Positions 1-60,153 of a DNA stretch of 64,000 bases are shown one piece after another (the stretch's first letter is position 1; the number at the start of each line of letters is the position of its first letter). Position numbers and translations under genes: made by a program. The stretch lies in the NCBI GenBank assembly GCA_000091205.1, contig AP006494.2. One strand, written 5' to 3'. The notes below the pieces were generated by a model, which made no database searches, was not told the origin of the DNA, and saw nothing but the letters and a program-made list of their open reading frames with translations. Source of the DNA: Cyanidioschyzon merolae. Its lineage: Eukaryota.

Positions 1-2099
1 CCCCCCATTAACGCGATGATCCCAGCGCGAATGCGTCTCTGATTTTGACGTCTATCAATCCATACTCGTTAGGGATATTCCTTCGGCGGTACGGGCTGGC
101 CTCCTATGCATATGTCATGTTTTTCATCTAGCGTACCAGAGCCATTAGGGAATTACCTCCGGCGCTATGCTTTTTTTGGTCTGGCGGACTTGCCCGTTAG
201 TAAGATCGGCGAAATTGCTGGATCGATACTGGTTTCGGGAAATCGTCCATCCCGCTGACCAGTTTCTTTCCCTTCCTCGCATTTACTTTATCTCGGCTGT
301 GCTGATAGTTTCAGATATTGAACCCTGCGTCGCGTACCTGCCATCTGCATTCGCAGTGGCGTATCCGTCGCTGCTGCGGATGCAGTTTGGAAAGAGAGCA
401 GCTCTGACATACTACGGATCGCGTTGGAAAACGTTTGCTTCATGCAACGTAGGATTAAGTACATTTATTTTCTAGGCAGCCTTCAAGCTGTTCTTGCAGA
501 CCTTTTGCCTGCGATAGCGTAAAGCGCTATACCATTCCTCTACCGCAATCTAGGTGACTCTTTAGCGTAATATACCCGCTCCTGGTTCAGGATCTCTTCT
601 TTTGCCGAGGAGATGCTAAGGTGCGTTTTATCACTCGCTACTGTATTGTCTCTCTTATCAGAGGTTGGTAGAGTCTCGCTGCTTGCCGACCCTCCGCCTA
701 AATGTCACTGCTTGATTATACGCAAAGACTTCTTCCTTTTACTGTCTACAGTAGGTGGCATTAGTACTTGCTATCCCGTTTGTGTATATTATTTTTTTGT
801 ACTTTCTATATCGTGCGCCCTGCTTACGCATTGCGAACTCTGTCCGCTACTTCACTCTACGTTCGTGTTGCCGATCATGAGAAACGCGGTATTGACCTGT
901 TCTGGAGCGACTGCTCTTTCGGGGCCGCCTGCATTTGCGATCGAATTTTATCAAAGTATTGCTTTGGATTCAATGGCGTTTCTAACTTCCAGTATGTGTA
1001 TTGTACTGATGTTTGCGTTCAAGGCAGAAGCGTCCGATATGTTGTTCACTTAAAAAATGTCAGAGTTTTGTAATTTGAGGTTGTGGGTTGTGGATGTCCT
1101 GGGTTGCCTAGTTTAGGAACAAACGAGACATAGTAGCTATTGCTGAGGACTAGGAAAAGAAGAGGAAGCAAAATGGGGAGGCGCTACGACGAAGGCTGCA
1201 ATAGTGACATCTGTACGACTATATGGTTTTGTGATCCTGTTGTCTCCAACTTATCAATGATCCGTACAACTGAATGTTCCGAGATGCTTTCAGAAACCGC
1301 GTGGATTCGCACTCCAGGAATGTTTGTAGCTCTTGTTTAGGAGTGACGCATTTGCAGATCGAGCAGCATCGCGACGTAACGCACATCGCAAAAGTGGTAT
1401 TTCCGGAATAGTTTTTCAAAGAGAATTCTATCAACCACATGATTTCTCCGAAAAGGTAAGCATCAATGAGAAGAGAGCGGGCGGATGCCTACCTCAAAAT
1501 TTACGAGAAATTCCGCGACAACGGTGCTGGACACAGGGGTGACGCAGATATGTACGAATACAGGGCAATGGGTTTCCTCACGAACGCGAGGAACCAAAAA
1601 ATCTTAACCGTCGTCTTTTCCATGAATGGCGCCCCCTTTGCCCTCTACGCGGGCCTTCTTCGCGAAGGGATGCGGGCAATCATCGATGTTATCAGGAACG
1701 ATCGCAAGCATGAACAGGAGACCATATCCGTCGACAAGGTCACATCATGCTGGTTAACAAATGACGCTTCTGTTATCCGCGCCACTAGTCTAAAGCATCG
1801 TTCGGTCTTGGGGCTTGTCAACGCATGAGAAATATTCTCAGATATGAGTAAAGACGAAGAGATATATTACCCTATCCTCATGTCCTACTCCATGCTTTTG
1901 GACCGAGAACTCGAACGCAAGGCCGAAATGGAGCTGAGTATGGATATAATGAATTGCTGGAGAAATGGCACTGAAGACCTTCTCCCGTTGCGGTTTATTT
2001 TTCGTCCGGTTATGCGAGTTCAAGTCACATTTTGTGAATATCGACTCTAGATTTCTTTAGGCCTTCAAGAAAGAGATTTATCCAGTGCTCGATAGAGGC

Positions 2100-3345
2100 A
2101 CCAAAGAGGTCACTGGCGAAGACCGGGACACCTACTGGAAGAATATCTTCGATTGCAAGCGTCCGATACCGGCCAAAAGAAGGTATTCACGGGGGCCATC
2201 GATGACGATGGGGTATACATATTGGTTCACTTTCAGCGGTTGCAGGCACTTCGTCCTATCCCGTCTCCGTTACCGCCCTTGCCGAAGCACGAAAACAAGA
2301 CGAAAGGCCACGGGACGTATCATCTACACGAGAACGACTTCGTCGTCGGCCTTTACTCCTGGAATACTGACGTCATTACCATCGCTGTACCCAAGCGTTC
2401 CTAAGATTTTACTGAATGTTGCTTACGTCAGAAAGGCATGCGTCTTTTTCAGGTTCTCGAGATCGAGGTACTACCGAGAAGCGGGAATCATGAATCCGGG
2501 GAAGAAAATTGAGACCCTAAATGCAGGAGTGAAAGAGTATCTGAAAGTAATTAGCGAGGTGACGAGCCGACGAGCGGACTCTCAGGCCTGTCGAGAATTC
2601 ATGGAGGTTCGTTTTGTCCATTGGGATTCGCTGTAGAAGAAGTATAAAAGGCCCCGGTGGGTAGTCTACCTATGAGTCCTTACTGTGGTAGGCAGCGTTC
2701 ATTCGCGAAGTTTTTCAATGCGTTGAACGCCTCCAGGAGAATGAGAGTCAGTGGCTCATAGTGGCCTATGGAGCAGGGAGCAGGGCTCCGAAAAATGGGG
2801 ACTACGCCAGCTTCGTCGACGAGGACATACAATGTGTGTGCACGGCGTTTTCTTACAATCCCTGTAGATGGGTTCCGAACATTGTGTACACACCATGCGC
2901 TGGGCTGTATACTTCAGAGAGTGGAGATGGAAAAGTGTCATCGCAGCCCTGGGGAATTAGCAAAGTACGGACCGCTGACGGAACTGCTAATGGAAAGAAG
3001 GGCGAAAGTTCCTGGACTACTTGCAATAGCAAGTATAACGAATGAGGGCAAGAAACGGATGGGGTTTGTAAATCGTGCCTTTGATGCCGCATTCAATTTC
3101 AGAAGAAGTGCGGTGCTGGAGAAAATACCTCCAGAGTCGACATGAGAGAACTTTGTTTGACAACCTCTCAAAGTCGAACTATATGAGACAAGATTGGACG
3201 CAGGAGTAGGTGGCCGGTCCAAAAAGACGGGGGGCGTCTGCATAGCAATGGGAGACTTCTTGCTAGGGCGGGCTTCTCGCCAATACTGTACACCGCTGGC
3301 GCCGTTCGAGTGTAAAAGGCGGTGGTGGCCTGGACGCTCGGACTC
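2100..3345 (+). mobile_element. Decayed TnpB/Fanzor-like (IS605 OrfB-type RuvC nuclease) repeat copy 1. Frameshifted RuvC-I-like 'DFVVGLYSWNTDVITIAVP' lies near 2330-2400, degenerate RuvC-III 'FVNRAFDAAFNF' at 3065-3100, and a conserved roughly 200-bp 3' tail runs to about 3345. Frameshifted ORFs from about 1333 to 2100 may be its decayed N-terminal half.
   Basis: Conceptual translations match the other three copies (31273-31656 minus strand, 31700-32460, 45814-46100). Stops and frameshifts interrupt every frame, and RuvC-I D and RuvC-III D are mutated in this copy. Confidence 0.55.
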
Positions 3346-3369
3346 GTCGTCGGTGAGCACCAGACGTTT

Positions 3370-3410
3370 CCGAACAGTAGCCGAACAGTAGCCGAACAGT
3401 AGCCGAGCGG
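3370..3410. repeat. 11-bp minisatellite (ccgaacagtag) x about 3.7, about 430 bp upstream of the PMT-like gene start
   Basis: Direct reading of the tandem units. Confidence 0.9.
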
Positions 3411-3840
3411 TTCCAAAGCACTGCACCAGTTGCCACAGGAGCGACGCCCAGGCACACGACCGGGTCTCGGGAAACGCTGCAGTTGCTGGTGTACGAGCCG
3501 GTGCGTACCCGCCGAGAACGAGCTGGTCATCTTCGTCCGTGATCCCGGCACTCAAAGTGCACTCAGGCCCAGGCAGCTATTACCTCCTGTCCCTGGACGC
3601 GCAGGATCGCCGTCGGAGCGTACGCACTGTAAAGCACGTCAAACGTTCAAAGAGCTAGCTACTCGGCGAGTAGTTTACGTTCTTCAATCAAGCGCGGAGC
3701 AGCAGCAGCAGCGTCGAGCGCCTGCCTTTGACAGCGGCCTGTCCGCAGACGACTGCACACGCCTAACCGCTGCCCCTGGTGACCCCCGAGGCGGGACACT
3801 TTGGTGATTCCTGCGCCGGCCGTACTCCCACGGACCTAAA

Positions 3841-5538
3841 ATGGCGCCTGCTGTCAAGCGAAGAGCCGCGGACGCCACCGCCGCTTCGCTACCCGCCTCG
3901 TCGCCGTCAGCTGAGCGTGTGCAGGCGGCAGACTTGGACGTCATGCATCAGGGCCGCACCAAAGAGGACACACCACAGCATGAGCACCCGGGCGCTGACC
4001 CGCAGAAACAACAGGCATCACCACTCGAACGACTAGTGCTGCGCTCGACTGCGCACGTACGCGCGAACCCGGACGCCTGGCTCACGGGTGCGCTCGTGCT
4101 GCTTGGACTGTGGACGCGCCTCTACCGGATCCGCTGGCCACCCGAATGCGTCTTCGATGAGGTTCACTTTGCGTCGTTCGCACACCACTACCTCAATCGC
4201 ACCTACTTCTTTGATATCCACCCGCCTCTGGCGAAGCTCACGCTGGCCGCAGTCGCGAAACTCGCTGGTGACGTCCCGAATCGCGACTGGTACGTCGACA
4301 AGGTCTACCCACCAGACAGCCGGTACTATGCAATGCGCGCGTGCGCTGGCGTCTTCGGGGCGCTCCTGCCTCCGCTAGGCTTCCGCATCGCCCGCGGGAT
4401 GGGTATGTCGCGGATCGCAGCCACTAGTGTGGGCGTGTTTCTGCTCTTCGACATGCTGAACCTGATCGAGGCGCGCCATATCCTCACGGACTCGCAGCTC
4501 ATCTTCTACGCTGCGCTATGCATCGATGCGTTCGTGCGGCTGTGGCGCACGCCTCCAGCGAGCCGCGCTCGACGCTGGGCTGCTGTGCGCGCCGGCCTCG
4601 CGAGCGGTGCAGCGCTCTCAGTGAAGTGGACCACGCTCGTGGTGCCCGGCCTCTTCGGCCTCGAGTCGGTTGCCGGCGCTGCGCTCGCCGCCGAGCCGCT
4701 CGAGTGGAGCACCTGCGCGATCGTCGCCGCAACAGCCCTGCTCTTGTACGTGGCGCTCTGGTACCCGCACTTTCGGATTCTGATCTATAATGGACCAGGC
4801 GGTGACTTTATGAGCGCCGAGTTCCAGCGGACCCTCATTGGTCGCGACGGCTACGACCCGCAGGCCCGAAAGCCGCCTTTCCTCAAGCTCGTCTGGCAGC
4901 TCAACAAGGAGATGCTGCTGGCGAACGCGCGCATCCTCGATGAGCACCAGTGGCAAGCGCGCTGGCACACATGGCCATACGTAGGCCGTGGCCTCCTTTA
5001 CTGGAATCGCTGGCAGGAGGGTACGTTGGATGCTGACGGGCGACCGCTGCGCCCGCATCACGCCATGCAGATCTATCTGATCGGGAATCCGCTGCTGTTC
5101 TGGATGTGCTTGGCAGCGGTGCTTGGTACAGTGGCGGCAATGCCGTTCTTGCTGCGCCTGATTCGCCAGCGGAAAAAGCGTGGAACGAGCACGGACGCAT
5201 GGGAGCGCTACCTGCGGCTGGCAACATTCCTTCTGCTTGGCTATGCGCTCGGCATTCTCCCGTACATGCCGATCCAGCGAAGTACGTTTATCTACCACTA
5301 CCTGCCGTCGCTGTTGTTCGCGGAGCTGCTTTTTGCGCACGCGGTCCTCGATCTGCCGGCGCTACCGTCGGTGCTGCAGCTGCCGCTCGCCGGTATCGTC
5401 TGGATCGTTGTCTTCTGGTGCTTCTGGTACTTCCGCGCCTGGGTCTATGGACACATCGCGCTCACCGCCGACGACCATGAGGCCATGCGCTGGATCAAGT
5501 ACACGTCCAGCGTAGGCGACAACAAGGGATGGCACTGA
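3841..5538 (+). CDS. GT39-family dolichyl-phosphate-mannose protein O-mannosyltransferase-like (PMT-like) multi-pass membrane protein, 565 aa, apparently lacking the MIR domain
   Basis: Loop-1 signature 'VFDEVHFASFAHHYLNRTYFFDIHPPLAKL' matches the PMT/POMT catalytic DE motif region. Multiple hydrophobic segments follow, in one uninterrupted ORF. Confidence 0.75.
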   Translation: MAPAVKRRAADATAASLPASSPSAERVQAADLDVMHQGRTKEDTPQHEHPGADPQKQQASPLERLVLRSTAHVRANPDAWLTGALVLLGLWTRLYRIRWPPECVFDEVHFASFAHHYLNRTYFFDIHPPLAKLTLAAVAKLAGDVPNRDWYVDKVYPPDSRYYAMRACAGVFGALLPPLGFRIARGMGMSRIAATSVGVFLLFDMLNLIEARHILTDSQLIFYAALCIDAFVRLWRTPPASRARRWAAVRAGLASGAALSVKWTTLVVPGLFGLESVAGAALAAEPLEWSTCAIVAATALLLYVALWYPHFRILIYNGPGGDFMSAEFQRTLIGRDGYDPQARKPPFLKLVWQLNKEMLLANARILDEHQWQARWHTWPYVGRGLLYWNRWQEGTLDADGRPLRPHHAMQIYLIGNPLLFWMCLAAVLGTVAAMPFLLRLIRQRKKRGTSTDAWERYLRLATFLLLGYALGILPYMPIQRSTFIYHYLPSLLFAELLFAHAVLDLPALPSVLQLPLAGIVWIVVFWCFWYFRAWVYGHIALTADDHEAMRWIKYTSSVGDNKGWH

Positions 5539-29338: not shown

Positions 29339-30406
29339 TCAGACCGTGCGAAAAAGCAGTACGACTGGACAATGATCTGACAGTCGCCGCACCTCTTCGC
29401 GCTTTACTTGCGTTTGCTGAAACGCTGCGCCGTAGATCTCTATATCAAAGCGAATATAGCTGTCGACGATGTGTGCGGCAGCACTGGCGCTACAACAGAA
29501 GTAGTCTAAGCGCCATCCTCGATTCTGGAAGTAGTTCTGGACATGCCGATACCCGATGTAGGAGTAGGCGCGGACAGATGGATGCAGCCAGCGGAACGTG
29601 TCCAGGAGTGCGCATTCCTGCAGGGTTTGCGAAAAACTCGCCCGCTCCTCATCAGTAAAGCCCGCGCTGCGACGATTGCCCTCCGGGTTCCAGATATCGA
29701 TTTCCTGGTGGGCGCAGTTCAGGTCACCGCACCAGATGATGGGTTTCCCAGTGCCTTGTCCAAGGCGTTTCAGCTGTGCCCGAACTGCTTCGTCCCATAC
29801 GCGAATGCGATAATCAAGGCGCTTGAGGCCCTCGCCGCTATTCGGTACGTACATGCTACACACCACACAGCTTGAAAACTCGACAATGATGACCCGCCCC
29901 TCAGAATCTTCTACGCCGAGCTCGGGATCGAACCCGTATTGGACTCGAACGGGCTCGCCAAGGCAAGAGCCTTTTCGCAGAAAGAGTGCCGTCCCAGAGT
30001 ACCCACGCTTGCTTCGACACGGATGGAAAAGGCAAGTCTCATAGTGCTCTTGGAGCGCGGACTTGATCGCTTCAGGAATAGGTTCTGACACTTTTATCTC
30101 CTGAACAGTGAGCAGGTCCGGGCACTCGTGCACAATGAACGCGTCGAAAAGGTGTTTCGATCTTGAGAGCGCACTTCGCAGTGAAGCAATGTTGTAGGAG
30201 GCGAGCTTTGCGACTTTCGGGTCTTGCGGCGCACCCCAGGGGCGTCCGCTCGAACTGATCGGTACATCTGCAGGACTTTCCTTCCCGGTGTCTCTCAATT
30301 CGCCGCGACCAGCGTTTTGAACAGCGTTTCCTTTTTCAGCTTTTTTTTCATCTTTCGGAGAGCGCTGCACTGTTTTGCGTCGTTTCCTTTCACCCTCGCC
30401 AGCCAT
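29339..30406 (-). CDS. APE1: AP endonuclease 1 / exonuclease III family (APE1-like), 356 aa from Met 30406. The ORF continues to 30667, but that extension is repeat-derived.
   Basis: Lys-rich N-terminus 'MAGEGERKRRK...', 'SYNIASLRS', 'LTVQEIK', 'WCGDLNCAHQEIDIWNP', and C-terminal 'LSDHCPVVLLF' (the ExoIII SDHxP motif). Confidence 0.8.
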   Translation of the reverse strand: MAGEGERKRRKTVQRSPKDEKKAEKGNAVQNAGRGELRDTGKESPADVPISSSGRPWGAPQDPKVAKLASYNIASLRSALSRSKHLFDAFIVHECPDLLTVQEIKVSEPIPEAIKSALQEHYETCLFHPCRSKRGYSGTALFLRKGSCLGEPVRVQYGFDPELGVEDSEGRVIIVEFSSCVVCSMYVPNSGEGLKRLDYRIRVWDEAVRAQLKRLGQGTGKPIIWCGDLNCAHQEIDIWNPEGNRRSAGFTDEERASFSQTLQECALLDTFRWLHPSVRAYSYIGYRHVQNYFQNRGWRLDYFCCSASAAAHIVDSYIRFDIEIYGAAFQQTQVKREEVRRLSDHCPVVLLFRTV

Positions 30407-30454
30407 CGCTAGTGGTACAAGTGGAAACGAAGCTTGCTTCTGTCTGCGCGCGCT

Positions 30455-31660
30455 CACCAGGAGGCGTGCGGTATCCGGGTTGACTGCCGCTCGGGTACTA
30501 GAGGCCATGCCTCGTATGAGTGGCTCGATACCCACCGCCGTTCTAAGTCGAACGACAGCGGTGTACAATAGTGGCGGCAAACGCGCCCTAGACATAGCGT
30601 CTCCAGCCGAGGGGCAGACGCCTCCCAGTTTTTTTTCGACAGGCCACCTACTGCTGCTTCCAATCATGTCTCAAATAGCTCGACTTTGAGAGATTGTCCA
30701 ATAAAGTTCATTCTTGTCAGCTCTGGAGGTCTCGTCTCCAGCGCTGCACATCTCCTAATATTGATCGCGGCATTAAAGTCACGATTCACGAATTCCATGC
30801 GTTTCGTGTCATCATTGGTTGTACTTACCAATGCAAGGGGTCTACGAACTTTCGCCCTCCTCTCCATTTGCTCCTCCGTCAGTGGTCCGTACTTTTTTAT
30901 ATCTTCAGGGCTCCGCTGACACTTTTCCATCTCCACTGTCTGAAGTGTACATCCCAACTCGTGGTGTGTATAGGACGTTCGGAACTCATCTATCGGTATC
31001 GTAACGAAACGCCGTGCACACTCTTTGTACGTTCTTGTCGTTGGAGCTGGTGTACACCCTTTTTGGGTCTTCCATCGCCCTGCTCCGTACGCGACTACGA
31101 GCCTTTGATTTCATTCTCCTTCAGGGCACTCAACCCAATGAAAAAGTTGGCAAACGCCCGCTACCTCCCACCGTATAGATTCATACGCAAACGAGCCCAC
31201 CGGGGCTTGGTATACTCCTCCCATAGCGCCTCCCAGTGAGCAACACGAACTTCTATGAATTTCCGAAAAGCTTTAAAGTCCGCTCCTCGGCTCGTCACCT
31301 CGCTCGAAGCTTCCAGGGGATCTTTCATTCCTGAATTCCACGTACAAATTTTCTACCTCGCATTCATTATACCGGATCCTCGATAGTATCTTGCTCTCGA
31401 GAACCTCAAAAAGACGCATATCTTTCTGACGTAAGTTACCATCAGTCCCATCTTCCGCACACTTTGGTACAGCGATGGTTATGATGTTCGTATTCCCAGG
31501 GTCCACGCCAACGACAAAGTCGTGATCCTGCATCTCCTGCATCGCAAGATCCGCACCCTTCTCATCTACATGCTTCGCCACGTCAACGACAAGGTCGTCA
31601 TCCTCCACTTCCTTCGTCGCAGGATCCGCATCCTTCTCATCTATATTCTTCGCCACGGGC
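30455..31660 (-). mobile_element. TnpB/Fanzor-like RuvC-domain repeat copy 2, minus strand. RuvC-I 'DFVVGVDPGNTNIITIAVP' lies near 31461-31527, RuvC-II-like 'VAHWEALW' near 31200, a C/H-rich Zn-finger-like stretch follows, and RuvC-III 'FVNRDFNAAINIRRC' is near 30750. It is N-terminally truncated, with a conserved 3' tail reaching to about 50 bp from the APE1 ATG.
   Basis: Motif order D..E..(Zn)..D matches TnpB. The open frame is broken at least twice, and it is homologous to copies 1, 3 and 4 in both coding and 3'-flank segments. Confidence 0.6.
31507..31656. repeat. Tandem duplication of a 75-bp unit (2 copies, about 85% identical) at the 5' end of Fanzor-like copy 2, at the junction of the inverted pair
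   Basis: Units 31507-31581 and 31582-31656 align base-for-base with scattered substitutions. Confidence 0.85.
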
Positions 31661-32810
31661 GAAGCCGAGGACGGACCAGGAGGCGAGCCCGACGGCGCTG
31701 GAGGTGCAGAAGAACGAGGTTGTCGTTGGCGTGGACTCTGCGAACACGAACATCGTTACCATCGCAGCACCCAAGCGTGAGGAAGATGGCTCTGACGGCA
31801 ACTTACGTCAGAAAGACATAAGTCTATTGAAGCTCTCATGAGCGAGATATTACCAAGAATCCGGTATAATGAATGCGACGAAGAAAAGTGAGACATCGAA
31901 CTCAAGAGTGAAGGGAATTTGGAAGCGATCAGCCGGGTGACGAGCCGCGGAGCCGATATTGAAGCGTTTCGAGAGGCTATGAGCATTCACGCAGCTCATG
32001 ACGAAAGCCTTTGGAAAGAATGCACAAAGTTCAGGTGGGCTCGTTTGCGTATGAACCTGTACTGTTGGAAGCAGCGAGCATACGCCGGCTTTTTCAATCA
32101 GTTGAGCGCCCTCAAGGAGGACGGGAGCCAAAGGCTCGTAGTAGCATACGGGGCAGGTCGATGGATGACCCACAAAGGGTGTATACCAGCTCCAACGACA
32201 AGAACGTACAAGGAGTGCGCACACCGTTATGTAAAAATACCTTTAGATGAGTTTCGAACATCTTCTACACACCACGAGCTGTGTTGTACACTTCAGAGGG
32301 TCGCGATGGAGAAAAGCCAGCGGCTCGCTGACGGAAATGCAAATGGCAAGGAGGGCGAACCTTCGAGGACTACTCGCTTTGGTTAGTAAAACTAATGATG
32401 GCAAGAAACGAATAGAGTTCGTGAATTGAGATTTTAACGCCGCCATCAGTGTAAGGAGGTGTGCAGTACTGGAAAGAAGACCCTCGGAGTTGGCGAGAGC
32501 CAACTTTGCGGGGCAACCTCCCAAAATGGAGTTATACGAGATGAAGTTGAAACCAGTAGCAGGTGGCCAGTTGCGGAACGCCGGCACAGGCGTCTGCACA
32601 TCGATGGGTAGACAATCGGTCTACGGCAGACGGTGTGCCAAGTGCCACCATTGTACACTGGCTTTCCAGCGTTTCTCTTTTGCAAGGCGTTTGGTGGTGT
32701 TTCCAGAGACGAATTGTTTACCAAAAACGTCTTCTATCGATCTTCGAAACCAACGTGCTGCTTCCTCTGTGCGGCACGGGGCGTACGCTATGCGCTTTTC
32801 TGCTGATTGA
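31661..32810 (+). mobile_element. TnpB/Fanzor-like RuvC-domain repeat copy 3, plus strand, head-to-head with copy 2. It carries RuvC-I 'VVGVDSANTNIVTIAAP', the RuvC-II region 'AAHDESLW...GFFNQLSALKEDGSQRLVVAYGAGRW', Zn-finger-like 'KECAHRY...THHELCC', and RuvC-III 'FVN*DFNAAISV' with an in-frame stop. The 3' tail frame stays open to 32810.
   Basis: 'GFFNQLSALKEDGSQRLVV' aligns with the canonical TnpB segment 'GEFRRQLEYKAEWYGRTLVVV' that precedes the Zn finger. There are multiple frameshifts. Confidence 0.6.
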
Positions 32811-38592: not shown

Positions 38593-39917
38593 CACGATCA
38601 TCAACTCCAGCCTATATGGGGTTTGTTCTGTAATTAGATTCTCCACCGTTCTCTTACGAGCGGATTGCAATACCTTGGACGTCTCTTGTCCTCTAAAATC
38701 GTTTACAGCAGTCAAAGGGTGATGACGGCAGCGCTCAAGTCCAGAGTTCACAGCATCCTGCAGTTTTTCACGTATTGCATGCATAGACGCAAGTCACAGT
38801 TCCCATGTCTTCTTCGTACACATCTGAGTGCGTCCTTCACACCAGTGACACTCGGCTGTGGTCAGCAGGCGATCGAATACGTGCTCGACAACGCCGCCCC
38901 CACGAGCTGTCCTGCAGCGCGTGAACGCTCGGGGCATCACTCGGTGGATGCCCTTGACGCATACTGAAAGCACCCAGCGAGGCGCTCGCTTCCGTTCCCG
39001 AGCCCCGTACCCTACACTGGGATCATCCGCTTCAGCTGAGCGATATCCTCAGCGAGTGTTGTATCGGCTGTGGGCGCAAGCGCACGCTGTTCCATTCGGC
39101 GGAGGAGTTATGGAATGCAATCTAGTCCGCCATGAAACGTGTACAGAAACGTACGTTCAAACCGGAGAACAAGCCGATAGACTCCGATCCGTCGACGCTT
39201 GTCTCGTACGTAGCGGTGGCGCATGCCCTACTGGTACCGAGTGCTGCGATGACCCCAGTCCGCTTCAGTCCACTTTTCCATGCGAGAACAGGAGAGACGA
39301 GCGCTTCTGGCAGCAGCACCAGCAGCACCATAGTGCCCTGAGAAGCATCACGCTGGTACTGAATGTCGATTCTTCACTGGTCATCACGAAAGGAGGATTT
39401 GTTTTCCGAAATGAATCGATCATTTGACGTGACAAGGCCAGTGGACGTTCAGCAAGCGCTCGTGAACAATGCGTCAGAGGACGACACGTCGGGGTTTCTC
39501 GCGTTGCGAGCCCCGCTGAACGACTCGCAGTGCGCACACGAGTTGCCTTGAGCCCCAAAAGATAAGATCGATCATGTAGAGACTTCGTGATTTGAACATA
39601 CTGCATGTCAGAAATGGAGAAGCGTCGAGATACGTGCGAATGAAGTATATCATGGTGTCACTGTATCGGTTGGTTGACGAACGCACGTACGAAAGCGTCG
39701 TGAAGCATCGTGATATCGGTGACGCCAGGAAATCCAGCAGCCGGGCGTCGAAGAGACCCCCGCGACCAGACCACCGATCATCCTAGAAGTACGAATGAAT
39801 CCGTGATCCCCCATTGCTGTACCTGGGCTCTCGATGCTGGGCATCTAGAAACGTTCGGAACTACGTCGCCAGGCATGCATGGAGCGTGCAGCTCAGCACT
39901 CCATTCTATACTGACAC
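38593..39917 (+). repeat. Dispersed direct repeat, copy A (about 1,325 bp). It is about 98-99% identical to copy B at 56877-58213 and has an internal (CAG)n tract shorter than in B.
   Basis: Identical ORF sets in the six-frame track at a constant offset of 18,284 bp (18,296 bp after the microsatellite). Boundaries were read directly: identity starts at 'cacgatcatcaactcc' and ends at 'ccattctatactgacac'. Confidence 0.9.
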
Positions 39918-44500: not shown

Positions 44501-44562
44501 TTACCGTTACAAGCGGTCGAGCGCTTCACAACGCGAATGCTGCCCGCACGCGATTCAGCAGG

Positions 44563-44600
44563 CGTGCGTGTGTGCGTGTGTGCGTGCGTGTGTGCGTGCG
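44563..44600. repeat. (GTGC/GT)n compound microsatellite just upstream (minus-strand sense) of the CDC48 start
   Basis: Direct reading. Confidence 0.9.
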
Positions 44601-45794
44601 CTTTGTATGGATACATGCATGAAGCAGGTATGCTCCGGCAACTTTGCGTGCGGCTCGAGTCGGTACTCTGTACAACGAGTGCATCACATGAATACGGAGT
44701 CCTCGTACATCGACAGGAAAAGTATATGATCGCACGCGTAGGTATAAAAAGTATATCAGTGATCAGCGCAGCTTGTCTTGCAAAAATGCCGATCAGGCTC
44801 ATTCGGCATGTCTTTCATATCAATTCTGTGACACCCCTGGTGCGGTGCATCGCAGGGGACCGAACAGACGATGGAATGTAGCACAGAGATCGTAGGCAAG
44901 TCGTCTGCAGGATACGTATTCCGTAATGAACAGTGCGACGAGGACAAAATTCATCCTCCCGGTCAGTCGTACCACAGTATTCAAGTGGTTGAGGAACTTT
45001 GAAAGAGCGACGCATATACGGACCGCACCAAAAACCGATAGTTTTAAAGATTGCTTGTGGTCAATGGTGGCGAACCACCCGTTGATCACGTTAAGGAAAG
45101 CAAAAGCGACGATCGTAGCCACCACGCACATCTCTGATCCTAACAGCTTGTTCGTATGGTCCTGAATACAATGGGACGCAGCTGCAAAAAATGTTCTAGT
45201 TCACATACGGCCATCTTCCACCGAAATCGCAACGGCAGCGTTCATGGATCGTCGCGATCAGTATGAAGCACAGTAACGTCGGTTGTTTCTTTCATCCGAT
45301 GAGACTTTCTTCGAACGAAACCGTCGGAGTGTGTATGGGCATTCGCGGAACACGGAGACCGTTGTATGTAGAATCGAACTCGAAAAGCAAGATGACATCA
45401 CCATCTATTCTTGATGTGGTGGATTCATTTGGCGGCCTCAGTTTTGCTCCCAGTGAGGGCTCGTGCAAAGGCACCAACCACTTTGTCGAATCATTGAATA
45501 CTTTTCGCTGAGGTCTGGCGACGACCTTCTATTCGACAACGTGGATTTTCTCCAATTTCCTCGAATTCGATTTTTGCCGATGGTATCGGAGGTAGAACTG
45601 CTTTTGATTCCTCCGTACGCTCCGTGGTTGAACGCCATCGAAGGTGCGTTTTGTATCGTGAAACATTATGATAGCTTCACTAGGCGAATCGCGGAAGCGT
45701 TCAGCGCACGGTGACACGGGGGAACGTATCGTCGCTCGTGAGCAAGTGCTTATGCTTGCGGGAGGCTGCTCATCTTAGAGCCTAAGGAAAACCC

Positions 45795-46230
45795 CTCAGA
45801 AATATATTATGGGATGAGCTGGGGTCTACATGTCAGAAGGTTGAAATGGAGAGAAGCCAGCGGGAGCGCTCTAGTGACCGGAAAAGACGTTGAGCTGACA
45901 CAGCACCAAATGGTACTGAGGGCACGAGGCCGCAGCATCCTTGAAATGATTAGTTCAGTCAGAGACAACGCACGCCAGGAGTTCGTGAACCGAGACTTCA
46001 ACGCCGCCATCAATATCAGACGATGTGTGGTGTTGGAGACGGGACTCGAGGAGCTGAGAAGATCCAAATTTGTGGGGCAGCCTCTTAAGTTCGAAATCTA
46101 CAGGGAGAAAATGAACCCGATCGGAGTCGGCCGGTCGAAAACGGCTGGAAGGCGTCTCTGCATCGATTCATTTATGCACGCTATGGTCGCGGGACGTGTT
46201 CTTTCCACTGAACACATAAGCATTTGCGAT
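45795..46230 (+). mobile_element. TnpB/Fanzor-like repeat copy 4. It is a 3' fragment with an intact RuvC-III-type motif 'FVNRDFNAAINIRRCVVLE' and the conserved 3' tail ('IGVGRSKTAGRRLC...'). It is embedded in a longer ORF, 45814-46680, that is otherwise unrelated.
   Basis: Homology to copies 1-3 begins near the Zn-finger-equivalent region ('SWGLHVRRLKWREAS') in a shifted frame. Nothing upstream is homologous. Confidence 0.5.
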
Positions 46231-47297
46231 CTTTCCGTAGCAACGGAAAACCATCCGAGAAAATGTTTATATATCGCATCGTTTAGTAACGATCAAGCCC
46301 GACGCTCACTCCGGACGGCTGTAGAACGCATGCCGTCCTCTGTTTCTACTGTTCTCAGCGGTGCTGTTCAGCAACGATGCAGCTGCATGGGCGACTCGTG
46401 CTCATCGCTCGCCCAGGGCGCGTCGGTTCCCAATGGATTCGCCTCAGTGAAGACCCGTCGTGAAACAATGGCACTCGGGTTAAACGCCACGAAACACACC
46501 GGGGGCTTAAGAGATGGAACTTGGCCATACGTGCATCCATCGGATTGCTGCACTTCCCAAGCGTATGGTGCATGGAAGCCTCCTGTGTCACATGGTGATC
46601 GCTTTCCTGGTTACCGACCGCGCTCGCGCACTGAGAGGCATCTGATTAGATCTACTGATTCCACAACATCAAGAGATTAGCAGGGTGCATTCAGGATCTT
46701 GCGACGGGGCGCTGTCCGGCGTCTGCCTTGCGACAAGCAGACCCGTACCTCGTGTCGCATGTCGCTGCGGACAGAACATGCCTTCGTCTCAAGGCAGGAT
46801 CGATGCGGTTCCCAGAGCCGCTCCATCGCCCACGCAATCCGCACGAGCGTGTGATTCGAGTCGACGAGTCGCTGCGGCTCATCGGGTCTTTCCTCGACGT
46901 CCAAATAAAAAATTGGCTTTAGTCTGGTGCGAATAAGGCACGTCTCGAGATGTACGCAGCTGCATCCGCAGGCCCGAGAATCACGATCGCGCATCCAAGC
47001 GATGTTGTATAGATACAGCGACTTTTTGTGCCATAATATCCATAAATGGGTCATTCCAGTCATGATGGATCAGCGCTCCTTGCGCGCTCGAGCGGACCTC
47101 GGCGCCTGACACGTTCGGGGCGGTAGGCGTTGCGCGCGACCCAGGCGACTCTGTTCATGCTGAAATAGATGTATATTTATAATCTAATATGTATATAAAG
47201 GACACATGATGCAGTGCACAAACCGGGCGCCGGCATCGCACCGTACCGTAACTGTGGATGCTAAGCTTACGCTATTACGGGGCGTCCAAGTCGGTAC

Positions 47298-56876: not shown

Positions 56877-58213
56877 CACGATCATCAACTCCAGCCTATA
56901 TGGGGTTTGTTCTGTAATTAGATTCTCCACCGTTCTCTTACGAGCGGATTGCAATACCTTGGACGTCTCTTGTCCTCTAAAATCGTTTACAGCAGTCAAA
57001 GGGTGATGACGGCAGCGCTCAAGTCCAGAGTTCACAGCATCCTGCAGTTTTTCACGTATTGCATGCATAGACGCAAGTCACAGTTCCCATGTCTTCTTCG
57101 TACACATCTGAGTGCGTCCTTCACACCAGTGACACTCGGCTGTGGTCAGCAGGCGATCGAATACGTCCTCGACAACGCCGCCCCCACGAGCTGTCCTGCA
57201 GCGCGTGAACGCTCGCGGCATCACTCGATGGATGCCCTTGACGCATACTGAAAGCACCCAGCGAGGCGCTCGCTTCCGTTCCCGAGCCCCGTACCCTACA
57301 CTGGGATCATCCGCTTCAGCTGAGCGATATCCTCAGCGAGTGTTGTATCGGCTGTGGGCGCAAGCGCACGCTGTTCGATTCGGCGGAGGAGTTATGGAAT
57401 GCAATCTAGTCCGCCATGAAACGTGTACAGAAACGTACGTTCAAACCGGAGAACAAGCCGATAGACTCCGATCCGTCGACGCTTGTCTCGTACGTAGCGG
57501 TGGCGCATGCCCTACTGGTACCGAGTGCTGCGATGACCCCAGTCCGCTTCAGTCCACTTTTCCATGCGAGAACAGGAGAGACGAGCGCTTCTGGCACCAG
57601 CAGCAGCAGCAGCAGCAGCAGCACCAACGCGCCCTGAGAGGCATCACGCTGGTACTGAATGTCGATTCTTCACTGGTCATCACGAAAGGAGGATTTGTTT
57701 TCCGAAATGAATCGATCATTTGACGTGACAAGGCCAGTGGACGTTCAGCAAGCGCTCGTGAACAATGCGTCAGAGGACGACACGTCGGGGTTTCTCGCGT
57801 TGCGAGCCCCGCTGAACGTCTCGCAGTGCGCACACGAGTTGCCTTGAGCCCCAAAATATAAGATCGATCATGTAGAGACTTCGTGATTTAAACATACTGC
57901 ATGTCAGAAATGGAGAAGAGTCGAGATACGTGCGAATGAAGTGTATCATGGTGTCACTGTATCGGTTGGTTGACGAACGCACGTACGAAAGCGTCGTGAA
58001 GCATCTTGATATCGGTGACGCCAGGAAATCCAGCAGCCGGGCGTCGAAGAGACCCCCGCGACCAGACCAGCGATCATCCTAGAAGTACGAATGAATCCGT
58101 GATCCCCCATTGCTGTACCTGGGCTCTCGATGCTGGGCATCTAGAAACGTTCGGAACTACATCGCCAGGCATGCATGGAGCATGCAGCTCAGCACTCCAT
58201 TCTATACTGACAC
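56877..58213 (+). repeat. Dispersed direct repeat, copy B (about 1,337 bp; (CAG)9 tract at 57598-57624)
   Basis: See copy A. Confidence 0.9.
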
Positions 58214-60153
58214 GGGTACAGGAAAGCGCATCAAGACAGCGTTCTCGATTTACATCGGCACTGAGCTTTAGGTGATTGCGAGATTGCAATCGGGGCTCCC
58301 AACGGTGATTAATATGCAAACCGTTAAGCTGATGTCCGCTTCGAATAACTCACCGCCGACAAGACATGGAACCACTCATCGTCCGGGAACCATGTTCGGT
58401 TCGGGACCCGGGAATGAATCCATACTCTTGGATCTGACGGTAACGCAAAGAGTCTCGGTTGCAGGAGTCTCGCCAACAAAGGGCATCTATGATTTTTTGT
58501 CTGAGAAAGACTTTTGTCAGTGCGAGCAATCAGATTCTCCGTATGCTACGGTATGTGCTCTGGTATTTGAAGCGAAAGGATGGGTGTCGGGAACAGAGCA
58601 GATTACCTTGGAGTAGATGCTCCCACATCTTCCGAATATTGCTCCATTGGTTCTCGATTTTCGCCTTTGCAATGCAAGATACCAATGGCGACACACCTAG
58701 TGAAGAGAATCTCGTTGTTCAGTGCACCCATGGGGGGATTGAGCCTTCTATGGAGGGAAACTGGCGCTCGACAACCCTTCTCGACGCTCAGTGGTCGATC
58801 GCTGGTCACGTATTTCCAAGAGCATCCTGAAGCGGACTGTTTCATTTACCAGCTCGTTTTGAGGAGCACCAAAGATACTCCGCCATCTTTATTCATCCTT
58901 ATATATGGACAGCCAGCACATGTAGAATCCGAGCGGAGAATCGTGCTCTGGCACGAACTATTGGGAAAGCGAACGCACCCGGCGGCACCCGGGTCGGAAA
59001 CAGCCTTCAGAAAGTCGACTAGACTGCCACGGTACAATACAACGTCCTATTGATCGATCACCTCATTGGGGTAGGTTTTGCTTCCATTTGTTGCCGTAGT
59101 CGTTCGACGAAGCGATGCTCCGAGAGACGCTTTCCCAAAAGTTCGTGAAAGCATTTCCAGGCAACGGCGCCAAGCAGGCGCGCAAGACTCGCATCTCTCG
59201 CAGCGCTAGCTCGACTTGTGTCGCGCAGCTTGCCTGCCTCGATGAACAACGAATCCTGTTACCAATTTGAGCGATCAGGGTAAATGAGTAGACGCTCAGC
59301 TTGTATCTTTTCCAGAGGAACGAACGGATCCTCGGTTAGCACTTAGTCTCTGGCGCGCACATGTTGCAAGGGTAATGGACACTCGAGAATCCACGAATTC
59401 GGTCTCTGGACAGCTCACAACGATTCAGCGTGACAGGTACTACTTCAACTCTGAAACGTTTCCTTTTGTTGAGTGAGGCGAGCACTCATCGCTCCCGTAA
59501 TAAGCCTCTGCGTTTCGATCCAAAACCAATCATGTACGATGCAATGCATGACGGTCTCGTACAGAATCGCGCTTCTTTCTGCGTCCATCCGTGGCTCTTC
59601 ATCACCGCCCATATCAACACTACGGAAAATTCATACCCAATCGCTTCTTCGGCAGTGTTTCTTAGACAGTCTACAGATTGGAGTGGATTGACAAGGAGAC
59701 AGCCGCGTAAATGGAGTCTGATAATGTCTGATATAGGTGCACATCGTTCAAGACAACGCCTACGCGATGAGTGGTTCATTAAGCTGCTGAGAGCAGAATT
59801 CTTAACTTGTAGAGACAGGTCCATTTTCTCGTAATGTCGGTGACAGCATAAAGTCATTCCGCAACCTTTCGACAACCTGCAGGAAACATTCTTTTTGTTG
59901 AACACCTGCGACAAAAAGAATCAAAAACAAAATATACATGCTGGTATGAATAGTGCAGAACTCAGCATTCCGCGTACAGCGATATCCGGCAGGCAAAACC
60001 TCTTTCGTGATCTTTTCATGCGGTTCAGCCTGCACATATCGGCGCAACGCCCGCCGTCGTGCATGAATTCAAAATACCTGTCGTTGTAGCATACTCTATT
60101 AGCCGCAAATTTGCAGCCAGATTGCATGCCGCAAGCGGTTCACGAGTACAGAC

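Follow-up and report, generated by a model that had tools for sequence, protein, structure and literature searches.

A probable relic omega-RNA scaffold at the right end of a degenerate Fanzor1 element family in Cyanidioschyzon merolae

A 64,000-nucleotide stretch of the genome of the red alga Cyanidioschyzon merolae (contig AP006494.2 of assembly GCA_000091205.1; hereafter the window) carries four copies of a repeat family encoding a TnpB-like protein, and the locus raises the question of why each copy retains a homologous segment, the tail, beyond the last nuclease motif, RuvC-III. A preliminary description, made from the sequence alone, took this tail to be free of open reading frame (ORF) constraint and proposed that it is a transposon terminus or an RNA scaffold. 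Our analysis reveals that the repeat family has Fanzor1 homology, that the tail contains the end of the element, that codon periodicity is lost within it and that its ancestral sequence has a strong folding potential. Based on its position, lost coding signal, folding and homology, the tail is probably a relic omega-RNA scaffold that doubled as the right end of the transposon.

Comparison of the window with itself by blastn and MAFFT reveals four copies that are homologous at the nucleotide level, with pairwise identities of 61-76%, and their homology extends past the RuvC-III codons for ~225 nt in copies 1-3 and for ~195 nt in copy 4. The sharing of the tail by all four copies, as noticed earlier, is thus borne out. 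A blastn search with a 26-copy consensus of the element places copy 1 at 1152-3309 (+), copy 2 at 31657-30536 (-), copy 3 at 31678-32627 (+) and copy 4 at 45814-46157 (+). All four are pseudogenes, frameshifted or truncated and with many stops, and the frameshifts account for the conceptual peptides that had been read in differing frames as a result of indels. Copies 1 and 2 indeed end their ORFs early, at stops that are premature (3143-3145 on the plus strand and 30666-30664 on the minus strand, respectively), whereas the read-through ascribed to copies 3 and 4 results from frameshifts only. In addition, copy 1 had been thought to begin at 2100; its degraded N-terminal half in fact reaches back to at least 1152, and its ORFs at 1466-1828, 1844-2050 and 2085-2330 match the N-terminal half of homologues of 558-593 aa.

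The identity of the protein was addressed with the four-copy consensus protein as the homology query. It has 259 close homologues with 50-84% identity, nearly all from JGI metagenomes, some of which (558-593 aa) carry DUF8286. The close family alone yielded no match in Pfam, PDB sequence or PDB profile searches. A profile search of 1.8 billion representatives recovered 1410 relatives, many of them 600-700 aa in length, and a profile combining the close family with the distant relatives matches the Fanzor1 structures of Parasitella parasitica (9cf0, E 1.2e-19) and Spizellomyces punctatus (8gkh, E 2.8e-11). One relative also shows a Cas12f1-like_TNB match below threshold (E 0.0023). Residues D232, E404 and R472-D473 are invariant in the alignment of close and distant relatives, and the consensus RuvC motifs read GADPGNTN ... 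DEFRTSYTHHELGC ... FVNRDFNAAINI. The motif described by Bao and Jurka is D-X-[TS][TS]-X-X-zinc finger-X-RD (PMC3627910); the C4 zinc finger of the present family appears degenerate. The consensus ORF carries the RuvC D...E...RD triad, preceded by an N-terminal basic stretch that is a possible nuclear localisation signal. An AlphaFold2 model built on a shallow alignment of 23 sequences reached a mean pLDDT of 33. As its profile matches two solved Fanzor1 structures and the D, E and RD residues are invariant, the protein of the repeat family is, judged from sequence, a Fanzor1, the eukaryotic homologue of TnpB, and the earlier recognition of the ORF as a TnpB relative is made more precise.

The limits of coding and of the element were mapped on relatives from one metagenome scan (431 relatives, 80 loci kept) and on a 3' alignment of 52 non-redundant copies from hot-spring metagenomes. 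The conserved unit spans ~2.65 kb and contains a single consensus ORF of 784 codons. Within the 3' alignment, RuvC-III occupies positions 208-249 and the consensus stop codon TAG positions 410-412, and conservation continues up to ~470-478, where the per-column identity drops from 0.76-0.90 to the background value of 0.42, ~65 nt past the consensus TAG. Homology among the copies stops ~12 nt beyond a terminal hairpin, and a semi-conserved G/T-rich stretch of ~12 nt lies directly beyond this hairpin. Many homologues and loci end in ...GGRSKKTGRRLHVSWRRFV followed by the stop, and the homologue C-terminus reads ...RRLHVSWRRFV. The tail of ~225 nt is composed of 53 C-terminal codons and a non-coding right end of ~65 nt, so that the proposed freedom from ORF constraint does not apply to the 53 consensus codons between RuvC-III and the TAG and does apply to the ~65 nt after the stop. 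The proposal of a transposon terminus fared better, as the tail reaches the point at which homology among more than 50 copies stops, that is, the right end of the element. At the other side, the left end opens with a GC-rich palindrome, GCGCTCAGTGAGCGC. Young copy pairs and empty sites were also sought to fix the termini; every near-identical pair shares its flanks and represents the same locus in different samples.

Codon-wise conservation divides the tail further. Before RuvC-III, the identity to the consensus is 0.81 at third positions as compared with 0.94 at first and second positions (p 1e-13), indicating that much of the family divergence arose under protein selection. By comparison, the codon signal is weak at positions 251-343 (p 0.02), where the third-position identity of 0.87 slightly exceeds the upstream value of 0.81 (p 0.03), and codon periodicity is absent from the last 22 codons at positions 344-409 (p 0.29). 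The tail consequently has three parts: ~95 nt of coding sequence, ~65 nt (the last 22 codons) that lie in the ORF, lack periodicity and evolve in the manner of non-coding DNA, and ~65 nt of non-coding sequence.

The predicted folding of the tail is distinct from that of the remainder of the element. For the last 139 nt (positions 340-478), the majority consensus has a folding energy of -63.8 kcal/mol and a z of -4.25; for positions 200-338 its z is -2.79, and upstream coding windows have values of ~0. The mean z over the 52 copies is -2.2 for positions 340-478 and -1.5 for positions 200-338, with the upstream ORF and the flanks at ~0, and a hand-curated consensus of the main subfamily folds at z -5.27. 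Three distant relatives, L083, L084 and L085, have tails that are not alignable to the family tail and served for fold statistics only; the regions around and downstream of the ORF end are structured in L083 (z -3.54) and L085 (z -2.72), with internal coding controls at -0.36 and +1.51, respectively. In the window, the tails of copies 2, 3 and 4 have z values of -2.55 (30526-30661), -1.49 and -1.55, respectively.

Averaged pair probabilities define four helices in the tail. A hairpin CTGGAG/CTCCAG (S1) lies directly past RuvC-III; a long-range stem CAGTAGT/ACTACTG (S2) connects the final codons with the non-coding part; positions 381-383 and 399-401 form a small GTC/GAC helix; and a terminal stem of 8-11 bp closes the series. 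In addition, a GGCG/CGCC hairpin directly after the stop codon was spotted by eye and is the sole helix returned by RNAalifold. Stable terminal hairpins occur in 87% of the copies (flanks, 31%; coding sequence, 2%), and the hairpin sequence differs from one subfamily to another (GTTCGA/TCGAAC, GTTCTA/TAGAAC or AACGTTTTT/AAAGACGTT). L072 has a 14-bp GC stem at this place, and copy 4 has the unrelated TTTCCGT/ACGGAAA. Compensatory change was found as a weak signal in the terminal hairpin by a column-wise test, and double-sided pair changes number 23 across the tail as compared with 16.7 expected (10 of 500 shuffles), 13 of the 23 lying in terminal helices. The earlier suggestion of an RNA scaffold is therefore supported by structure, with much more folding in the last 140-280 nt than in the remaining ORF or the flanks, whereas covariation is weak or inconclusive.

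The retention of the tail in every copy had been attributed to amplification independent of the protein. This part of the proposal receives hardly any support from the family. A hidden Markov model of the last ~105 nt identified 94 tail instances, of which three clearly lack Fanzor coding sequence upstream; further hits, in L044, L045 and L047, are so close to a locus edge that their upstream sequence is not visible. The three ORF-less modules belong to one subfamily and are located ~1 kb upstream of the left end in the long-form copies L031, L062 and L081, and the tails in the window are always joined to a Fanzor remnant. The family pattern is one of constant 3' ends and variable 5' ends, and the presence of the tail in every copy is mainly explained by 5' truncation and 3' anchoring of the copies, not by solo amplification. 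The long-form copies (L031 16-1200, L062 1-1150, L081 193-1350) carry ~1.1 kb of additional conserved 5' sequence, which starts CACCAAC.. and includes the ORF-less copy of the last ~100 nt of the tail. A long-range stem considered in one ORF-less module (module #1) was dropped, as its upstream arm folds locally.

These observations agree with a relic omega-RNA scaffold, and a model for the ancestral element can be drawn by analogy with the Fanzor1 systems of S. punctatus and G. theta and with ISDra2 TnpB. In this model, the single ORF of ~784 codons would have encoded a TnpB-like RNA-guided nuclease, and the stretch of 140-280 nt would have been transcribed as the omega-RNA scaffold and bound by the protein. 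The transcript would run ~15 nt into the flank, and this portion would serve as the guide; the Fanzor1-RNA complex would cut matching DNA beside a short motif, and the same stretch would also mark the right end of the mobile DNA. The omega-RNA of TnpB likewise continues into the flanking DNA as a guide and may overlap the end of the ORF. In characterised Fanzor1 and TnpB loci, the omega-RNA is encoded at this very position (PMC10432273), and that of Fanzor1 reaches 14-15 nt into the flank as the guide and may overlap the last codons (PMC10432273). The tail is thus an expected feature of a known system and not a new kind of element.

Several observations weigh against this interpretation. The non-coding tail, with an identity of 0.76-0.86, is no better conserved than third codon positions (0.81). 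The idea that the tail is simply a C-terminal extension of the protein is half right, as ~160 of its ~225 nt are coding. An intact ORF is present in none of the 80 fetched loci, the longest reaching 778 codons, and there is no sign of present-day selection. The fold signal is lost in copy 1 (z +0.14), and a z of ~-4 is not peculiar to the tail, being found in further 136-nt windows of the element consensus. Covariation offers little help: RNAalifold on 51 tails gave one 3-bp helix only, the column-wise test of five helices found no compensatory change in S1-S4, and the consensus-derived structure leaves 78.3% of cells paired as compared with 77.4% in shuffles. The slid-partner controls give 20-28 double-changed pairs, a range that the 23 counted in the tail do not exceed. 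The plus strand is favoured in folding, but it is likewise favoured in the coding control, and the advantage is partly due to base composition. In Rfam, no family reached the gathering score anywhere in the window, and the hits at 2900-3450 were at chance level only. Finally, a hairpin acting at the DNA level accounts for the same data.

The last point deserves consideration in its own right. The tail might work at the DNA level only, as a single-stranded right-end signal for a trans-acting transposase such as those of IS200/IS605, IS91, Helitrons or Replitrons, with no guide RNA; copying would then begin or stop at the signal and would produce intact 3' ends with variable 5' ends. The hairpin ~12 nt from the end of homology, its subfamily-specific sequence, and the constant 3' and variable 5' ends are all as this explanation predicts, as are the lack of terminal inverted repeats and target-site duplications, also described for CMe-1A, and the GC-rich palindrome GCGCTCAGTGAGCGC at the left end. 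A similar over-representation of 3' ends was described by Bao and Jurka for the Helitron-borne Fanzor1 of Chlamydomonas (PMC3627910). The elements nevertheless lack a CTRR 3' end and a 5' TC, no asymmetric inverted repeat of Helitron2 type was seen by eye (a formal search was not run), no HUH or RepHel gene was found adjoining any copy, and Replitrons were not detected in red algae (PMC10288648). Moreover, the structured zone of 140-280 nt starts inside the ORF and is longer than a terminal hairpin signal requires. An exclusively DNA-level role therefore seems rather unlikely to us, and such a signal is in any case compatible with an omega-RNA, since IS605 DNA does both. A Helitron or Helitron2 candidate was examined and rejected: the hairpin position fits, and the elements end in ..GGCGTTTGGTG or ..GGTGGTGG and not in CTRR. 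We know of no Helitron in this genome. Searches of the family for inverted repeats at the termini, for duplications (TA or other) and for a target motif in the left flank gave nothing convincing. No TnpA-like gene (Y1 HUH) adjoins any of the 80 loci, and the element has a single ORF. IS605-type insertion could likewise not be demonstrated from the flanks, the left flanks giving only a weak recurring (A)TCG or AGCG.

The tail could also have no special function and consist of a weakly constrained Fanzor1 C-terminus followed by an ordinary 3' untranslated region (UTR), for example one with an mRNA 3'-end or stability hairpin, kept by descent and 5' truncation. The 53 consensus codons past RuvC-III, a tail identity (0.76-0.86) resembling that of third positions (0.81), the inconclusive covariation and the pseudogene state of all observed copies fit this view. 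We nonetheless hold it to be improbable: the ancestral z is -4.25, and the fold is kept on average at ~20% divergence (z -2.2) with the upstream ORF and flanks at ~0; diverged subfamilies and two distant relatives have unrelated hairpins at this position; a module copy persists without coding context; and third-position conservation at 251-343 is slightly above that found upstream (0.87 vs 0.81, p 0.03). A further explanation takes the tail as the right inverted repeat of a Tc1/mariner-type (DDE_3) transposon carrying Fanzor1 as cargo, of which the copies would be deletion derivatives. Copy 4 is immediately preceded, on its own strand, by a DDE_3 pseudogene; the distant L085, a brine-metagenome contig, has an intact DDE_3 gene (435-1343) and, after it, a Fanzor1 of 699 aa that belongs to the same DUF8286 clade; the long-form start CACCAA is complementary to the right end TTGGTG; and Fanzor1 is known as Mariner cargo (PMC3627910). 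However, among the Fanzor copies examined, copy 4 alone has an adjacent DDE_3 gene within the window, the 6-nt terminal complementarity comes from two sequences and may be due to chance, TA duplications were not found, and no inverted repeat between the main left and right ends was seen by eye. DDE_3-like sequence also occurs ~1.9 kb downstream of L022 and L027. The data hint at mariner-cargo ancestry for at least one lineage, and as an explanation of the tail we give this model only a slim chance. Spread without any transposase is a more speculative scenario still, in which a Fanzor1 ribonucleoprotein would make a guided break at an ectopic, partly matching site that is repaired by one-ended synthesis primed from the right end (break-induced or resembling synthesis-dependent strand annealing). 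It is suggested by the constant 3' and variable 5' ends, the lack of inverted repeats and duplications, the copied palindromic pairs and the G/T-rich stretch, and we regard it as a long shot; if true, 3'-anchored and 5'-truncated copies would result, and the tail would be both guide-RNA gene and priming end.

Our comparison with known systems places the relic-scaffold interpretation in context. As in SpuFz1 and GtFz1 (PMC10432273; 8gkh, 9cf0), to which the protein is homologous at the profile level, a conserved structured segment extends from the ORF end to the right end, where homology stops. The possible overlap with the last codons recalls GtFz1, in which it covers 17 aa, and the ORF-less module copies recall the 'ghost' loci of Spu-1. 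Spu-1 differs in having clear 30-nt inverted repeats and a 75-nt scaffold, whereas no inverted repeats were found in the present family and its structured zone measures 140-280 nt; in addition, this family is known from sequence alone, and all copies seen are inactive. Similar to IS200/IS605 elements such as ISDra2, the family has a predicted scaffold that begins within the 3'-terminal part of the nuclease ORF and reaches the right end, a subterminal hairpin ~10 nt short of that end, and no target-site duplication. Unlike them, the family has no TnpA (Y1 HUH) gene, resides in a eukaryotic nuclear setting with a putative nuclear localisation signal on a protein of ~784 aa, and has no definable target motif 5' of the left end other than the recurring (A)TCG or AGCG. 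The Helitron2-type CRe-1/2/3 elements of Chlamydomonas (PMC3627910) share frequent 5' truncation, intact 3' ends and a 3' subterminal hairpin with the family, which is distinct from them in lacking Helitron ends, asymmetric terminal inverted repeats (by eye) and a T-rich target.

The closest description is that of CMe-1A from Cyanidioschyzon merolae by Bao and Jurka in 2013, with ~150 copies of ~3 kb and ~80% identity to the consensus (PMC3627910). CMe-1A has no inverted repeats, its target-site duplications could not be determined, and its 5' 635 bp correspond to the repeat TE-N2_CMe (PMC3627910). The present family shares with it a Cyanidiales red algal host, a single Fanzor1 ORF, hundreds of mostly degraded copies (more than 430 relatives here) at ~80% identity, the lack of terminal inverted repeats and recognisable target-site duplications, and a longer form with an extra 5' segment that acts as a separate repeat. 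The family thus fits CMe-1A, an assignment that relies on matching descriptions and not on alignment to the Repbase consensus, and TE-N2_CMe may be the counterpart of the 5' segment of the long form. In line with the host, the identity of the PMT gene neighbouring copy 1 (3841-5535) is 99% with a protein from a hot-spring metagenome, 74% with Cyanidiococcus yangmingshanensis and 65% with Cyanidium caldarium. The paper on CMe-1A (PMC3627910) predates omega-RNAs and is silent on the 3' tail. For this red algal family, whose ends had never been defined, the limit of coding constraint and the element end are now mapped, providing a concrete candidate scaffold of 140-280 nt and right-end coordinates for testing a guide RNA of Fanzor1 derived from a thermoacidophile. 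The understanding of TnpB and Fanzor systems is unchanged, as the position and nature of the module are as predicted.

All copies in the window are dead and the system is inactive here, and it looks extinct or nearly so in the population. Copy 1 is a degenerate, 5'-truncated Fanzor1 element at 1152..3328 on the plus strand, as defined by consensus blastn and by ORF fragments matching the homologues P0024/P0037; it covers consensus positions 835-3147 (element ~2.65 kb). Its RuvC-III codons, FVNRAFDAAFNFRR (consensus FVNRDFNAAINIRR), lie at 3064..3105, with RD changed to RA, and several frameshifts and stops are present. The rest of the consensus ORF past RuvC-III, the 53 consensus codons, occupies 3106..3263 and includes hairpin S1 (CTGGAG-loop-CTCCAG, 3116..3134; mean pair probability across copies ~0.65) within the C-terminal coding part. 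The last ~22 codons, which lack codon periodicity in the family, are at ~3198-3263 and contain the 5' arm of S2 at 3201-3207. Beyond the site of the family consensus stop TAG (3264..3266), the non-coding right end at 3267..3328, whose last conserved bases are at ~3328, comprises the GGCG..CGCC hairpin at 3267-3281, the 3' arm of S2 at 3282-3288 and a decayed terminal hairpin at 3300-3321, all on the plus strand. An 11-nt tandem repeat, GAACAGTAGCC, is present three times at 3372-3404, 45 nt beyond the right end of copy 1; it contains CAGTAG, as does the 5' arm of S2, and CAGTAG also occurs in the element 5' UTR. This tandem repeat was not found in any of the 85 fetched loci.

Copy 2, a 5'-truncated Fanzor1 copy on the minus strand (30526..31657, with its end at ~30526), has RuvC-III at 30793-30752, the consensus stop at 30590-30588 and the terminal hairpin at 30557-30536, and is 99.4% identical to the metagenome locus L014, flanks included. 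Only 20-30 nt separate its right end from the likely start (Met codon at 30508) of a downstream exonuclease III-type AP-endonuclease gene, and the listed ORF 29339-30667 is artificially lengthened through the transposon tail of copy 2 in another frame. A 75-nt tandem repeat at 31503-31652, in the linker before RuvC-I, encodes an acidic unit ..KDEDEKEADPATQEVEDNDLVV.., which is present in one to about six units in homologues (P0001, P0002, P0020). Copy 3, also 5'-truncated, is positioned head-to-head with copy 2 at 31678..32696 on the plus strand (end ~32696); the R codon of its RuvC-III (32417-32458) is now a stop, and its terminal hairpin at 32670-32689 is of the 'B' type. Copies 2 and 3 together form a palindromic pair (30526-32696) of 5'-truncated copies, and their junction (element positions ~1937 and 2134) recurs at at least four loci with different flanks (including L021, L025 and L061), which suggests that the two copies were copied together as one unit. 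A second type of head-to-head junction is found in L078/L079.

Copy 4, the most diverged fragment, retains the last ~115 codons and the tail at 45814..46249 on the plus strand, with RuvC-III at 45981-46022, CCACTGAACAC at 46204-46215 and its own perfect 7-bp terminal hairpin (TTTCCGT-AGCA-ACGGAAA) at 46232-46249. The Tc1/mariner-like DDE_3 transposase pseudogene directly upstream of it, on the same strand, occupies 44917..45708; its Pfam match (E 3.7e-5) is under the curated cut-off (24 vs 28.6 bits), and tblastn with the L085 transposase matches it at E 1e-25. A second DDE_3 fragment is located at 59492-59749 (-), and a (GT/CA)-rich microsatellite (..GTGTGCGTGCGTGTG..) at 44560-44610 lies upstream of the DDE_3 remnant. 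The window further contains a 1.33-kb direct repeat with 97.9% identity (38593-39917 and 56877-58213, 18.3 kb apart), and the region that it flanks includes a 1732-codon kinase ORF.

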